Shown here in pieces: positions 34,826 to 39,057 of a stretch of DNA of 64,000 nt (the first letter of the stretch is position 1; each line of letters starts with the position of its first letter). A model generated the notes under the pieces. That model did not search any database and was not told where the DNA came from. It worked only from the letters and a program-made list of their open reading frames with translations. The DNA is taken from the IMG/VR virus record IMGVR_UViG_3300049144_000095, positions 187,160 through 251,159 of that record. The stretch is one strand, 5' to 3'. Source of the stretch: a virus. Its lineage: Duplodnaviria > Caudoviricetes. Made by a program: the position numbers and the translations under genes.

Positions 34826-34900
34826 TGGCGAATAGCTCAGCTCGGTCAGAGCGCGGAACTGATAATTCCGAGGTCGAAGGTTCAAGTCCTTCTTCGCCAA
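34826..34900 (+). tRNA. tRNA-Ile(GAU), CCA not encoded
   Basis: TGGCGAA/TTCGCCA acceptor; GCTC/GAGC D stem; CGGAA-CT GAT AA-TTCCG; GAAGG-TTCAAGT-CCTTC. Confidence 0.93.
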
Positions 34901-35104
34901 CTGAGCCAGGGGGGTAGCGCTGGGCACGGCGCACCTCCTGGCTCACTCTCTCTCCCCGCTGCACCTGGTACGGGCGGTGCAGCGGGGAGACGCCAAGCGA
35001 ACGGCGCAAGGAGCAGGTCGCATCGAGATGGGTGGTTCGTCGGAGCAGGTCAGGGGGTTTCGGCCCGACGGCCAAGCGGTCAACTAACCACCATCGTCCA
35101 TAGC

Positions 35105-35169: not shown

Positions 35170-35245
35170 GCACCCGGTGTGAAGGCAACGGTTACTTCTT
35201 CTGCAAAAAGAACCCACACCGTAGCCGATTCGGTTAACCGGGGGC
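35170..35245 (+). ncRNA. Y-RNA-like gene 1 (short; scaffold plus single anticodon-like stem-loop, GCA)
   Basis: CCCGGT/ACCGGG closing stem; shared GGTGTG..ACGGTTACTTC..CACCGT..CGATTCGGTTAACC; TTCTT-CTGCAAA-AAGAA hairpin. Confidence 0.75.
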
Positions 35246-35263
35246 GTCAACTTCACAGTGGTT

Positions 35264-35408
35264 CTGGAGTCGTTCGGTGTGATAGTGACGGTTACTTCAC
35301 CTCTGGAGTGAGTAGACCGGTTCAACTCCGGCGACGGCGAAAGCCCGGTAGTGTAACGGCAGCACGCTAACGTACACCGTTGCGATTTGGTTAACCGGAC
35401 GACCCCAG
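35264..35408 (+). ncRNA. Y-RNA-like gene 2 (YrlA-type; circularly permuted tRNA-Gln-like module)
   Basis: CTGGAGTCGTTCGGT/ACCGGACGACCCCAG stem; TTCAC-CTCTGGA-GTGAG, T arm CCGG-TTCAACT-CCGG, GAAA-capped acceptor remnant, D arm GTGT-AACGGCA-GCAC. Confidence 0.82.
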
Positions 35409-35432
35409 AGTCACTGTGATGTGCGCAGACAA

Positions 35433-35576
35433 ACCGGCTGGTGTGTAAGCATCAGTTACTTCCGGTAATCTCTAGGTCGTTGGTTCAAGTCCAACCCGGA
35501 GCTTAAACACTTCGGTAGCTCAGTTGGCAGAGCAAGAGACAAATTGTCACTGGTGCGACTTGGTTAACCAGCCGGT
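35433..35576 (+). ncRNA. Y-RNA-like gene 3 (YrlA-type; circularly permuted tRNA module)
   Basis: ACCGGCTGGT/ACCAGCCGGT stem; TCTCT-AGGTC-GTTGG TTCAAGT CCAAC-CCGGAG loop CTTCGG-TA-GCTC AGTTGGCA GAGC-A-AGAGA (T arm precedes D arm). Confidence 0.88.
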
Positions 35577-35593
35577 CTGCCTGCGTACATGAG

Positions 35594-35622
35594 ATGCCCC
35601 CTCCCTGGAGGGGGCATTTTTT
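35594..35622 (+). terminator. intrinsic terminator closing the Y-RNA array
   Basis: ATGCCCCCTC-cctg-GAGGGGGCAT-TTTTT. Confidence 0.85.
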
Positions 35623-35643
35623 GTTTGACCGGAAAGGGGAGAA

Positions 35644-35862: not shown

Positions 35863-37473
35863 ATGACCCGTTTCAACATCAAGACAACCCAGCCGAAGGC
35901 GAAGGCTCCGGCCATCGGCACCTCTGTGAACCACGAGGGCGGCACCGGCTACACGCTCCCGGAGAAGGGTGAGCTGTTCAATCTCGCCACCGTCAACTTC
36001 GTCGGACAGGACACCTTCTATGAGAAGGGCGTCGACCGGGACGCACGCTACAACGGGCTCGTTGAGAGCGTCGCAGTCGACGACTGGTCCTGGTTGCGTG
36101 GCATGCTGACATGGCTGCGCTCCGACGCCAACATCCGCACCGCCTCCCTCACAGGCGCCGCGCACGCCGTGCACCGCCGCCTGGCAGCCGGTCAGTACGA
36201 CGGCAACGCCGAACTGGTCGACTCCGTGATCCAGCGCGCCGATGAGGTCGGCGAGTTCGCCGTGTACTGGCTCGCCACCTTCAAGGGCACCATGCCGAAG
36301 CCGGTCAAGAAGGGCCTGGCGATGGCGATGGTGCGCCTCTACACGGCCCGCAACGCCCTGAAGTGGGACTCGGGGGCGCGCGGCATGCGTTTCGCCGACG
36401 TCATCAACCTCGTCCACCCGAAGCCGCGCGACTCCGAGCAGGAGGCGCTGTGGAAGTACCTGCTCGACGAGCGCGGGCACAAGGACGGCAGCATCGACAC
36501 GGTGCCGATGATCGCCGCTCGCAAGCGCTGGTACGACGAGTTCTCCGACGAGCAGAAGCTGGCCTCGCTCCGCGACGGCTCGGCGTTCCGCGACTGCGGT
36601 CTCACGTGGGAGAACGCGTCGTCCGAGCTGAAGGCCCGAGTCGGCGAGAAGGTGCTATGGGAAGCGATGGCCTCGCACCTGCCCTACATGGCCGCCATAC
36701 GCAACCTGCGAAACATGGACCAGGCGGGCATCTCGTACACCACGGCCAGCAAGCTGGCGGCGCGCATCGCAGACCCGGCGGAGGTGGCCAAGTTCCGGCA
36801 GCTTCCGTACCGGTTCCTGTCCGCCTACCTGGCGGCTCCGAGCGACCGCTGGAAGGGTGCCCTGGAGGAGGCCATCAACCTGTCGCTGAAGTCCGTGCCG
36901 GAACTGCCGGGGCGCACGCTGGTCCTGGTCGACACTTCGGCGTCGATGAACCAGATGGGTTTCTCGGAGAAGTCCAAGGTGACCCCGGCCGTGGCGGCGG
37001 CCATCTTCGGCACGATCCTGGCCCAGCGCAACCCGGGCCGGGTCGAGCTGTACGGCTTCGCCAGCGGCGTGTTCAAGCACGACGTCAAGCCGGGTCAGGG
37101 GGTCCTCGCCGCCACGCAGGGCTTCATTCGCCGGATCGGCGATGTCGGGCACGGTACCGAGATGACGGCGTCCATCCGCCAGACGTTCACCGGGCACGAC
37201 CGCGTGTTCGTGATCAGCGACATGCAGTGCTTCGCGGACGACTCCGGGACGATGCTGACCAACGGTGAGACATACGGCGCGGTTGCGCAGCCGGTTCCGG
37301 TGCCGAACGGTACGAAGGTGTACGGCGTCAACATCGGCGGCAACACCAAGACCGCGATCGACTCGCGGATCAAGAACCGGTTCGAGTTCGCCGGACTGAC
37401 CGACCAGGTCTTCCAGCAGATCCTCGCACTGGAGGCCGGGTTCGCCGAGAAGTGGCCGTGGATGACTGCCTGA
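35863..37473 (+). CDS. rsr: Ro60/TROVE RNA-binding protein with C-terminal vWA domain
   Basis: NHEGG..Y....KGELF..FVGQDTFYE; WLRSDANIRTAS; RFADVINLVHPKP; LPYMAAIRNLRN; QLPYRFLSAY; LVLVDTSASM. Confidence 0.93.
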   Translation: MTRFNIKTTQPKAKAPAIGTSVNHEGGTGYTLPEKGELFNLATVNFVGQDTFYEKGVDRDARYNGLVESVAVDDWSWLRGMLTWLRSDANIRTASLTGAAHAVHRRLAAGQYDGNAELVDSVIQRADEVGEFAVYWLATFKGTMPKPVKKGLAMAMVRLYTARNALKWDSGARGMRFADVINLVHPKPRDSEQEALWKYLLDERGHKDGSIDTVPMIAARKRWYDEFSDEQKLASLRDGSAFRDCGLTWENASSELKARVGEKVLWEAMASHLPYMAAIRNLRNMDQAGISYTTASKLAARIADPAEVAKFRQLPYRFLSAYLAAPSDRWKGALEEAINLSLKSVPELPGRTLVLVDTSASMNQMGFSEKSKVTPAVAAAIFGTILAQRNPGRVELYGFASGVFKHDVKPGQGVLAATQGFIRRIGDVGHGTEMTASIRQTFTGHDRVFVISDMQCFADDSGTMLTNGETYGAVAQPVPVPNGTKVYGVNIGGNTKTAIDSRIKNRFEFAGLTDQVFQQILALEAGFAEKWPWMTA

Positions 37474-37484
37474 GCGGCGCACAG

Positions 37485-37518
37485 CGACGGGCCCCTTCGG
37501 AAACGAGGGGGCCCGTCG
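37485..37518 (+). terminator. GC hairpin after the Ro60 gene
   Basis: CGACGGGCCCCTT...GGGGGCCCGTCG. Confidence 0.65.
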
Positions 37519-37540
37519 TGGTTCACTCTCACCGAAGGAC

Positions 37541-37570
37541 TGGCCTAGGCCACGAAGTTTCCCATAGAAT
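37541..37570 (+). promoter_or_regulatory. promoter with GGCCTAGGCC (37542-37551)
   Basis: TGGCCT-N18-TAGAAT. Confidence 0.6.
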
Positions 37571-37598
37571 GGAATGGTTGACGGAAAGGAAAAGAAAC

Positions 37599-38621
37599 GT
37601 GACCACCAAGATCTGGATCAACCGAGCCCGCACGTACAAGACACACCTCATCGACATGCTGCGCAGCAATCCCGACGGGCGACCGGTGGAGATCTACACC
37701 ACGCACGTGGAAGCCAGCCCGGCGACCGCCCGTGCGGACCACTACAGCGCCGAACCCTCCCGGGAGACCCCGGACGAGGAGTACGCCGCCTGGGCCCTGG
37801 AGTTCGCGGAGCGCAATGGCATCGACTTCCTGCTCCCTTCGGACCGGGTCGTCGCACTGTCTCACTACCAGCACGAGTTCGCCCGGATCGGCACCACGCT
37901 GCTCTCCGCGCCGAACCCCGACCGCGCGGCCGTCACCAACTCCAAGACGGAAACGTACCGCCTGGCGGCAGAAGCGGGCCTGCGGGTGCCCCTACATGTC
38001 CAGGTGTCCACTGCGGCCGACTTCCGTGACGCGGTTCGCAAGATCGAATGGCAGGGCTTCCCGGCCTGCGTGAAGCCCGACACGGGGTGGGCGGCCGACG
38101 GTTTCTGGCTCATCAATCACCGGCGTCCCAGTGCCTCCGAACTCTTCACTCGCGGGCAGCGTACGGTTCGCGCAGAGGACTACGCCCGAGCCCTCCACGA
38201 CCTGGAAGACGGCGGAGAGAAGATTCCGCCACTCATCGTGATGCCCTACATGGACGACCCGGAGACGAGCATCGACTGCCTCACCGCTTCGGACGGCCAG
38301 GTCGTCACCACGATCGCCCGCAGCAAGGGTCGTTACGCGCGCACCTTCAGCGACGATCCGGCAGTGCATCACATCGCCCGCACGATGGCGCAGGCGCTCG
38401 GCATCACCTACCTGTCCAATGTGCAGACCAGGATGCTGGACGGTGAACCCATGCTGCTGGAGGTCAACCCCCGCGCCTCGGACGGTCTGCCCCACTGCAT
38501 GGCCACCGGCATCAACCTCGCCTGGGAAGCGGTCCGCCTCGCCTCCGGAGAGCCCGTGCGTGCACTGCGGCCCGACACCAGCAAGCTGCTCTACGTCGTG
38601 GACAGCATCATCGAGCTGTAG
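37599..38621 (+). CDS. ATP-grasp protein, Ter-associated type
   Basis: KIWINRARTY..LIDMLRSNPDG; YAAWALEFAERNGIDFLLP; CVKP; LIVMPYMDDPETSIDCL; LLEVNPR. Confidence 0.8.
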   Translation: MTTKIWINRARTYKTHLIDMLRSNPDGRPVEIYTTHVEASPATARADHYSAEPSRETPDEEYAAWALEFAERNGIDFLLPSDRVVALSHYQHEFARIGTTLLSAPNPDRAAVTNSKTETYRLAAEAGLRVPLHVQVSTAADFRDAVRKIEWQGFPACVKPDTGWAADGFWLINHRRPSASELFTRGQRTVRAEDYARALHDLEDGGEKIPPLIVMPYMDDPETSIDCLTASDGQVVTTIARSKGRYARTFSDDPAVHHIARTMAQALGITYLSNVQTRMLDGEPMLLEVNPRASDGLPHCMATGINLAWEAVRLASGEPVRALRPDTSKLLYVVDSIIEL

Positions 38622-38673
38622 GGATGGACCTGGGGTCCTCCGTGCAGCAGGCACCTTGAAGGAGGGGCCTGGA

Positions 38674-39057
38674 ATGGGTCAGGGAAGCACGGTCGAAGTC
38701 GGCGGAGAGGTTCTTTCCGTCGGTGACACGGTGATCGTGGAGAAAGGGCGGGACCGGGTGGAATGTCCGATCACCTCGATCGGCAATAAATACATCCACG
38801 TGAAGATGCACAACAGGGCGCTGAGGTTCCGTATCGGCGACCAGTCGGTTGCCGACAACCGGCGCGGAGTGCCCGCCCGCTTCTACACGCACACCGAAGT
38901 GGCTCGGGCGAAGAAACGGAGGGATCTGATCCTTCGCCTTCATGCTCTCGGATTCAAGCCGGTGGAGGGTTCTCTCAGCTCCGCGTCTCAGTACGATGAT
39001 GAGACGTTGGAGCGGGTTATCGCCGTCTTGTCCGAAAGCGTCAACTCCGGGAAATAA
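38674..39057 (+). CDS. hypothetical protein (SH3-like beta-rich N-terminus)
   Basis: GGAGGGG RBS; LSVGDTVIV...ITSIGNKYIHV. Confidence 0.6.
   Translation: MGQGSTVEVGGEVLSVGDTVIVEKGRDRVECPITSIGNKYIHVKMHNRALRFRIGDQSVADNRRGVPARFYTHTEVARAKKRRDLILRLHALGFKPVEGSLSSASQYDDETLERVIAVLSESVNSGK

Follow-up and report, generated by a model that had tools for sequence, protein, structure and literature searches.

What the tRNA-like domain of bacterial Y RNAs does has been an open question since 2014. The locus described here raises the question of whether such a domain can carry an anticodon arm, how that arm would be built and what it could be for. The locus lies within a 64,000-nt stretch (the window) of the virus record IMGVR_UViG_3300049144_000095, in which three tandem structured RNAs (Y RNA 1, Y RNA 2 and Y RNA 3) occupy positions 35171-35628, upstream of the gene of a Ro60 orthologue. 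YrlA RNAs, which neighbour Ro60 in over 250 bacteria and phages, have been modelled with an extra hairpin as a variable arm ('V'), the V region beginning with a conserved YUAY (Chen et al., 2014; PMC4201824), and it has been stated that 'YrlA lacks the anticodon loop', Salmonella YrlA being without such a loop (Wang et al., 2018; bioRxiv 10.1101/312249; crystal structure 6CU1). A first-pass annotation of the window had read Y RNA 2 as a near-complete circularly permuted tRNA-Gln(CUG) that may switch between showing and hiding its anticodon loop. The present analysis points, with a probability of roughly two in three, to Y RNA 2 being a Y RNA of the YrlA class from a large Streptomyces phage, in which a Ro60-binding helix bears a circularly permuted mimic of the host tRNA-Gln(CUG). 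This architecture is common to about 60 actinobacterial and actinophage modules, in which the published V stem-loop makes up the lower portion of an anticodon arm. Many Y RNAs of actinobacteria and their phages thus belong to a branch that has a genuine mimic of the anticodon arm, assembled through an uncommon exchange of strands within the stem, and its phage version can copy one particular host tRNA.

Pairing of the Y RNA 2 hairpin in homologous modules

Relatives were collected with the Ro60 protein as query, which returned 7 viral contigs, 80 actinobacterial loci and 6 further actinophage loci, and a module scanner anchored on the T arm and D arm only was applied to them. The scan revealed about 100 YrlA-type cores upstream of Ro60 genes, which are of two types. 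In type II, to which Y RNA 3 belongs, the sequence preceding the variable loop pairs with that following the D arm, as in the YrlA topology described in the literature. Type I, with 62 modules of which 60 are distinct, has the order conserved G(G/A)UUAC, UUCNN, a 7-nt loop, five bases, a variable loop of 4-5 nt and the T arm, and includes Y RNA 2. Type-I counts refer to the 60 distinct modules or, where given out of 57, to an independent MAFFT alignment of 57 of them. Most bacterial loci have one type-I and one type-II module in tandem upstream of Ro60 (tandem loci L024, L033, L036, L041, L049, L051, L056, L059 and L061, from Kitasatospora and relatives), and Y RNA 2 and Y RNA 3 of the window are arranged alike. 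No anticodon-type loops were seen in the low-GC viral contig L008 or in several mini-modules whose loops read AAUUGG.

Close relatives, phage Satis and two IMG/VR contigs (L002 and L003) with the same RNA array, gave no covariation signal for Y RNA 2 because its core is invariant among them, and the 80 actinobacterial loci were needed for the comparison. Since the same hairpin stands at the same place, after a conserved GGUUAC, in about 60 homologous modules, its occurrence in Y RNA 2 is more than chance.

Direct reading of the sequence placed the arms, the loop, the anticodon CTG (35303-35305) and the D arm where the first-pass annotation had put them, and T, D and anticodon arms are all present; the 'near-complete' tRNA that it described falls short at the acceptor arm, which is only a short closed stub. 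Its two competing pairings fared differently. GTGAG can indeed pair with CTAAC after the D arm, in four of five positions with one G.A mismatch (GUGAG at 35308-35312, CUAAC at 35367-35371). The self-contained 5-bp stem TTCAC/GTGAG stood in its three loop-closing pairs, which covary, but not in the pairing of UU with A42 and G43.

Position 29:41 is C-G in 56 of 57 homologues, and the next two pairs vary on both sides (30:40, CG 36, UA 10, GC 9 and AU 2; 31:39, AU 34, CG 17 and UA 5). For bases 42 and 43, the covarying partners are the two nucleotides directly behind G26 (28' and 27', respectively) rather than the invariant UU. Watson-Crick pairs are found at 28':42 in 60 of 60 modules (CG 37, UA 20, GC 2, AU 1) and at 27':43 in 57 of 60 (CG 42, GC 10, UA 4, AU 1), and double-sided changes occur at 30:40, 31:39, 28':42 and 27':43. 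Where the 5' strand is constant as UUCCA, the 3' strands UGGGG, UGGGC and UGGGA go, respectively, with CC, GC and UC after position 26. The junction UU, invariant in 57/57 homologues, shows no covariation with either base 43 or base 42; the pair U27:43 is open in 10 of the 57 modules, with changes that are one-sided only. The inner pairs of the GUGAG/CUAAC helix are unpaired in 25-60% of the modules (29':41 in 14, 30':40 in 34 and 31':39 in 31 of 57), and a conserved pairing of 35369-35371 with 35308-35310 was not found across the 57 homologues.

Because the loop-closing pairs covary and bases 42 and 43 covary with the bases after G26, the two 'alternative' pairings are two parts of one composite 5-bp anticodon stem, formed in the window by C35367-G35312, U35368-A35311, C35298-G35310, A35299-U35309 and C35300-G35308. 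The composite structure has 99.5% paired cells, compared to 28-52% when the partners are slid by one to three columns, and shuffled controls were far below it; the T and D stems are, respectively, 99.3 and 100% paired across homologues. The Levitt pair 15:48 also covaries (G:C 38, A:U 16, A:A 3), which identifies the 4-5 bases after the hairpin as the variable loop and the 3' strand of the hairpin as positions 39-43. The window Y RNA 2 has A15:A48, and the sister phages have A15:U48. The comparative data show that the permutation point lies inside the anticodon stem, where the chain enters and leaves the tRNA between positions 28 and 29, that a three-way junction with the Ro60-binding helix sits in the middle of this stem, and that the 7-nt loop CUCUGGA is constitutively displayed. 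In Y RNA 1, which has neither a T arm nor a D arm, the same UU does pair (UUCUU/AAGAA), so that the geometry of a 5-bp stem and 7-nt loop is kept in both contexts.

As for class, the YrlA order of T arm, closed acceptor-like hairpin and D arm, the invariant tRNA bases and the 15:48 Levitt pair are present in Y RNA 2. Likeness to YrlA further includes the position upstream of Ro60 on the same strand, the YUAY motif and the occurrence of several Y RNAs in a row in a phage. A putative GNCGAA-like motif lies in the predicted Ro60-binding helix, whose internal loop has GGUGUGAUAG on the 5' side and GAUUUGGUUAACC on the 3' side. GGUGUGAUAG in the window and GGUGCGACAG in Satis sit where the bacterial homologues have GGUGCGCAGG or GGUGCGAAGG. 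Y RNA 2 departs from the description of YrlA in that its hairpin, together with the pair of bases following G26, gives a covarying 5-bp anticodon stem with a 7-nt loop, as in about 60 actinobacterial and phage relatives, and in that its body copies one host tRNA. Y RNA 2 had no match to Rfam RF02553 at E values up to 10; this model is without positions for an anticodon hairpin. ARAGORN and Rfam RF00005 called only a tRNA-Ile (34826-34901), and not Y RNA 2.

Likeness to host tRNA-Gln(CUG) and identity of the loop triplets

The window module was compared with 53 distinct tRNAs of one Streptomyces griseoflavus genome, which was reached via a Ro60 locus. Among these, the D region of Y RNA 2 matched best to tRNA-Gln(CUG) (TGGTGTAATTGGCAGCACG, score 12), followed by tRNA-Glu(CUC) (score 11). 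The host tRNA-Gln(CUG) reads U-G-GUGU-AAUUGGCA-GCAC-G, with the loop UUCUGGU and the variable loop UAGU, and it is the only one of the 53 with the UAGU that Satis, L002 and L003 have as variable loop. The D region is near-identical between the two RNAs (GUGU-AA..GGCA-GCAC-G), loop positions 33-37 (UCUGG) are the same, and G37 is the host state, in accordance with the resemblance of D arm and G37 to actinobacterial tRNA-Gln that the first-pass annotation had proposed. The dinucleotide G36-G37 is the signature of TrmD m1G37 methylation. Y RNA 2 differs from the tRNA in its permuted chain, with ends between positions 28 and 29, in an acceptor reduced to a closed stub, which makes it non-chargeable, in anticodon-stem and T-stem sequences that are unrelated, and in positions 32/38, which are C/A in Y RNA 2 and U/U in the tRNA.

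Compared to Satis, the core of Y RNA 2 (35290-35372) differs at 2 of 83 positions (98% identity), while the core of Y RNA 3 is 64% identical and the spacers 55-70%. The primary sequence of Y RNA 2, beyond its fold, is therefore constrained within the phage clade. Two T-loop changes (35323 and 35326) were seen in a relative (X6).

Across the family, 58 of 60 modules have a 7-nt loop and the other two an 8-nt one. All 60 have U33; C predominates at position 32 (51 modules, against 7 with A and 2 with U), a purine stands at position 37 in 57/60, and A38 occurs in 59/60. Positions 34-36 are hypervariable, with 19 different triplets. A 7-nt loop with U at its second position and varying anticodons, which the first-pass annotation had proposed as a check among homologues, is thus what the family has. 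In real Streptomyces tRNAs, G36 is always followed by G37, and any other base at 36 by A37 or U37; among the Y RNA modules, G37 was found in 9 of 10 with G36 and in only 2 of 50 without it, a figure inflated by shared ancestry. The type-I hairpin therefore combines a 5-bp stem, a 7-nt loop, U33 and a purine at 37 that tracks 36, with a 4-5-nt variable loop after it, as tRNA anticodon arms do. The two 8-nt loops, in Kitasatospora/Streptomyces modules (L051:2015-2109, CUUCCAAA; L056:2028-2120, CUCCAUAA), have an otherwise standard stem.

Several homologous modules have been called as tRNAs by ARAGORN and in GenBank annotations, the hairpin loop serving as source of the anticodon (Table 1). These 'tRNA' genes are directly upstream of actinophage Ro60 genes and overlap Y RNA modules that start with GGUUACUUC. 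Most likely they are Y RNAs and not tRNAs, with the consequence for annotation that several 'tRNA' genes beside actinophage Ro60 are to be read as Y RNA modules.

The loop of Y RNA 1, CUGCAAA, is identical to that of Streptomyces tRNA-Cys(GCA), and the exact loop also occurs in phages JustBecause (L149, about 1351) and VanLee (L148, about 2382) and in viral contig L006 (about 2075-2100). Body matching to Streptomyces tRNAs showed agreement of anticodon and body in GUU, CUC and CUG modules: GUU modules have Asn/Lys-type bodies and a loop equal to that of tRNA-Asn, and CUC modules have the Glu-type D arm UCGUCCAGCGGCCYAGGAC. Anticodon and body do not match in GCU, GUC and UUG modules. The agreement that had been suggested for the Gln module therefore holds in the window and is not a family trait, as two modules from Nocardia that share the Gln-type D arm, and whose variable loop is UAGA, have the loops AUUCGGA and AUUGGGA (triplets UCG and UGG). 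Body-only matching gave no clean anticodon-body rule, and identity mimicry throughout the family is not claimed. The evidence on whether anticodon identity matters is mixed.

Several observations, including these mismatched modules, which fit a generic tRNA shape as well as specific mimicry, weigh against the reading of Y RNA 2 as a permuted tRNA-Gln(CUG) mimic. By nearest-neighbour energies, the self-contained 5-bp hairpin (UU with A42 and G43) beats the composite stem by about 5.5 kcal/mol in the window. Since the energy model prefers this form, the top two pairs may swap partners in the window RNA, UU and the CU after G26 competing for A42 and G43 in a 2-bp exchange that leaves the loop displayed in either state. 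The composite model is kept on comparative evidence despite this conflict, with the qualification that the homologues are related and that counts of covarying cells overstate independent events. Furthermore, no module of the window reaches the Rfam YrlA gathering score, and a soil-metagenome relative (X7, a 3249-nt contig, about 94% identical) has C->A at 35303, the first anticodon position. None of the RNA runs searched contains the locus, and expression, RNA ends and Ro60 binding of Y RNA 2 are predictions. Regarding function, Salmonella YrlA was not cut by an SOS-induced anticodon nuclease (PMC7790460).

Possible function and competing explanations

If Y RNA 2 acts as a mimic of tRNA-Gln(CUG), it would be transcribed together with Y RNA 1 and Y RNA 3 and bound by the phage Ro60 ring, and its tRNA-shaped module would offer an accessible anticodon loop to a protein that reads tRNA anticodon loops; Y RNA 1 would play the same part for a Cys-type loop. 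The most likely function, although tentative and short of even odds, would be that of a decoy, competitive ligand or sensor against a host nuclease or toxin that targets the anticodon loop of tRNA-Gln(CUG). The idea of a decoy or competitive inhibitor has already been published for YrlA, with the tRNA-like domain as a possible competitive inhibitor of an anticodon nuclease (Hughes et al., 2020; PMC7790460), and Ro60 and Y RNAs are found in RNA-repair operons induced by cleaved tRNAs (PMC7790460). In Streptomyces phage JustBecause, an annotated RNA ligase gene (L149:1729-2481) is immediately upstream of Ro60 and links phage Ro60/Y RNA loci to RNA repair. The published hypothesis and the RNA-repair neighbours in relatives provide circumstantial context for a role in RNA damage. 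Phage tRNAs and tRNA repair directed against anticodon nucleases (T4 Pnk/Rnl against PrrC; phage tRNAs with altered loops) resemble the present case in a tRNA-shaped phage RNA with a host-like loop and in the ligase gene of JustBecause, but those are functional tRNAs or enzymes, whereas Y RNA 2 is not chargeable and its decoy role is putative. The search for partners is narrowed to readers of anticodon loops (anticodon nucleases, VapC- and MazF-type toxins, TrmD, and t6A and i6A enzymes), and the decoy idea is directly testable with defined loop mutants.

A broader and rather doubtful extension is that the YrlA RNAs of actinobacteria and actinophages represent entire permuted tRNAs, which show chosen host anticodon loops on the Ro60 ring as decoys or tripwires for nucleases and toxins, in which case the hypervariable triplet in its fixed loop frame would be the trace of an arms race and loop cleavage could be coupled to Ro60-directed decay or RNA repair. 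The loops concerned would be of Gln and Cys type in the window and of Ile, Cys, Gln or Arg, Ser, Asn, Lys and Glu type elsewhere.

The next most likely explanation of the hairpin, possible though also below even odds, is a generic tRNA-shape adaptor, in which the anticodon arm only completes the L-shape by which general tRNA-handling factors (PNPase, modification enzymes, RNases) would recognise, stabilise or tether the Ro60-Y RNA particle, and the triplet and its Gln character are meaningless. This would account for a hypervariable triplet within a fixed loop frame (32, 33, 37 and 38) and stem geometry and for the anticodon-body mismatch of many modules, and Y RNAs are known to tether Ro60 to PNPase (PMC4201824; PMC12135203), including the case of a Thermus phage Ro60 that binds two phage Y RNAs and the host PNPase (PMC12135203). 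An adaptor of this kind would leave unexplained that the phage clade keeps loop and core while the neighbouring RNA drifts, that D arm and variable loop are specifically of Gln(CUG) type, that position 37 tracks 36 as in real tRNAs, and that the exact tRNA-Cys loop recurs in phages. The show/hide switch of the first-pass annotation, with a self-contained hairpin alternating with a GUGAG/CUAAC helix that abolishes the loop, is quite unlikely. The helix can form at 4/5 positions in the window, and UU can pair with A42 and G43 in the hairpin that the energy model ranks as most stable; the helix itself is the least stable form evaluated, its inner pairs are open in 14-34 of the 57 homologues, its outer pairs are part of the composite stem and the loop-closing pairs that it would break covary. 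What is left of the switch is the 2-bp exchange, with the loop displayed throughout.

The published reading, a class II variable-arm ('V') mimic with the flanking-strand helix as anticodon stem and no anticodon loop, agrees with the model of Chen et al. and its YUAY at the start of the V region, with the solved Salmonella YrlA and with the topology of Y RNA 3 in the window. For type-I modules it is nevertheless highly improbable, as the 3' strand of the hairpin pairs with the two bases right after G26, where an anticodon stem belongs, a normal 4-5-nt variable loop ending in the Levitt partner 48 comes after the hairpin, and tRNA finders read the hairpin as an anticodon arm. Variable-arm loops have 3-5 nt, whereas the loop here has 7 nt with U33 and R37. 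In the literature search, no paper came up in which the V hairpin is taken for an anticodon arm, although a mention in reviews (Sim et al., 2020; Boccitto and Wolin, 2019) is possible. A barely conceivable alternative is a functional processed tRNA-Gln, made from a permuted gene via a circular intermediate or as a split tRNA after RNase P cleavage. Mycobacterium smegmatis YrlA is cut by RNase P and gains CCA, and permuted tRNA genes exist in algae. Y RNA 2, however, has a bulged 5-bp stub closed by GAAA in place of a 7-bp stem, discriminator base and CCA, is embedded in a long Y RNA closing stem, and was not called by ARAGORN or the Rfam tRNA model. The permuted tRNA genes of the red alga Cyanidioschyzon and the two-piece permuted transfer-messenger RNA share the rotated order of tRNA parts, but mature to canonical chargeable molecules; the permutation of Y RNA 2 would be final, its ends running into the protein-binding helix.

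A Ro60-bound Y RNA with a possible 'anticodon arm' of 5 bp has been noted only in Deinococcus radiodurans (Yrn1; PMC4201824). Yrn1 has a 6-nt loop, no variable loop and a doubtful D arm (PMC4201824), and its permutation is another one, in which the hairpin between the T and D elements holds the anticodon position; it was judged by its authors to have evolved independently (PMC4201824).

The three-RNA array, neighbouring genes and aberrant relatives

The virus record of the window measures 251 kb and is also present in soil metagenomes. At the DNA level, the locus is 78% identical to Streptomyces phages of 186 kb (Satis, Kradal, Quantum and EhyElimayoE), in which the gene downstream of the array is annotated as 'Ro-like RNA binding protein'. 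The three RNAs share a 5' motif, GGUG(U/C)G... followed by ACGGUUACUUC, and a 3' motif, GAUUYGGUUAACC; these predicted Ro60-binding motifs are common to all three modules and to Satis, L002 and L003, and all three RNAs fold with long closing stems. Y RNA 3 is the sole Rfam YrlA match in the window (RF02553, 39.1 bits, under the gathering score of 69), and its helix has compensatory changes in comparison with Satis (ACCGA/UUGGU). Given the shared motifs, the long closing stems, the Rfam match and the TROVE gene, the identification of the setting as a phage Ro60/Y RNA locus is secure. Y RNA 2 ends about 445 nt upstream of the TROVE gene, whose product is its presumed protein partner, and a nearby phage ProQ C-terminal-like protein may be a candidate second RNA-binding partner. 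A promoter scan of the locus showed no sigma-70 consensus site. Coordinates are presented in Table 1.

Table 1. Features of the Y RNA locus and 'tRNA' calls in related phage loci. Positions are those of the window unless a locus (L) is given.
Feature	Position	Strand	Description and evidence
Y RNA 1	35171-35245	+	Minimal Y RNA with Ro60-binding helix and self-contained 5-bp/7-nt hairpin; sequence, fold, alignment with Satis, L002 and L003
Y RNA 1 hairpin	35196-35212 (loop 35201-35207)	+	UUCUU-CUGCAAA-AAGAA
Y RNA 2, whole	35254-35418	+	Sequence and fold
Y RNA 2 closing stem	35254-35277 with 35395-35418	+	CACAGUG..GUCGUUCGG with CCGGACGAC..CACUGUG; fold
Junction-proximal helix, 5' strand, and junction UU	35288-35297	+	ACGGUUAC, pairing with GUA-C-ACCGU (35372-35380); conserved YUAY before the tRNA-like domain as UUAC (35292-35295; alignment column conservation); UU 35296-35297
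Anticodon-arm mimic	35298-35312	+	C29 A30 C31 35298-35300; G39 U40 G41 35308-35310; A42 G43 35311-35312
Anticodon loop	35301-35307	+	C32 U33 C34 U35 G36 G37 A38; CUG 35303-35305
Variable loop	35313-35316	+	UAGA (UAGU in Satis, L002 and L003); last base is position 48, partner of A15
T arm	35317-35331	+	CCGG-UUCAACU-CCGG; 4-bp stem, not 5
Closed acceptor-stem stub	35332-35347	+	CG-(AC bulge)-GGC-GAAA-GCC-CG; 5 bp, 2-nt bulge, GAAA cap
U8 A9, D arm, G26	35349-35366	+	U8 A9 35349-35350; D arm GUGU-AACGGCA-GCAC 35351-35365; G26 35366
C27' U28'	35367-35368	+	Top two anticodon-stem pairs, with G43 (35312) and A42 (35311)
3' junction linker and junction-proximal helix, 3' strand	35369-35380	+	AAC and GUACACCGU
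Y RNA 3	35420-35590	+	Standard YrlA topology without anticodon loop; UCUCU 35469-35473 pairs with AGAGA 35536-35540; fold
Intrinsic terminator	35591-35628	+	Closes the three-RNA unit
Cys-rich open reading frame, 71 codons	35644-35859		Ends 3 nt before the Ro60 start
Ro60 (TROVE) orthologue, 536 codons	35863-37473	+	Pfam TROVE, 2.4e-15; 71% identical to Satis 'Ro-like RNA binding protein'
ATP-grasp protein, Ter-operon type	37452-38621		PF15632, 5e-31; flanks Ro60
Phage ProQ C-terminal-like domain protein	38419-39057		PF24203, 6e-14; near Ro60
VanLee 'tRNA-Arg(tct)'	L148:2204-2275
GiJojo 'tRNA-Arg(cct)'	L145:2269-2343
JustBecause 'tRNA-Cys(gca)'	L149:1335-1405
'tRNA-Pro(tgg)'	L144:2245-2335
L006 'tRNA-Ile(gat)'	L006:1903-1978
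L006 'tRNA-Gln(ttg)'	L006:2209-2281

Two actinophage modules deviate from the common pattern. The type-I module of Gordonia phage Rabbitrun (L146:2211-2370) has the loop AUUUUAA and the composite pairs C-G and G-C, and a second complete T-arm-like stem-loop is found inside its acceptor hairpin. In phage GiJojo, the module at L145:2286-2400 has a Gln-type D arm (UGGUGUAAUUGGCAACAC) and a UUCUA/UAGAA stem with an 11-nt loop (AUUUCCUGGUA) that includes CCUGG, and is an aberrant relative of the Gln module.

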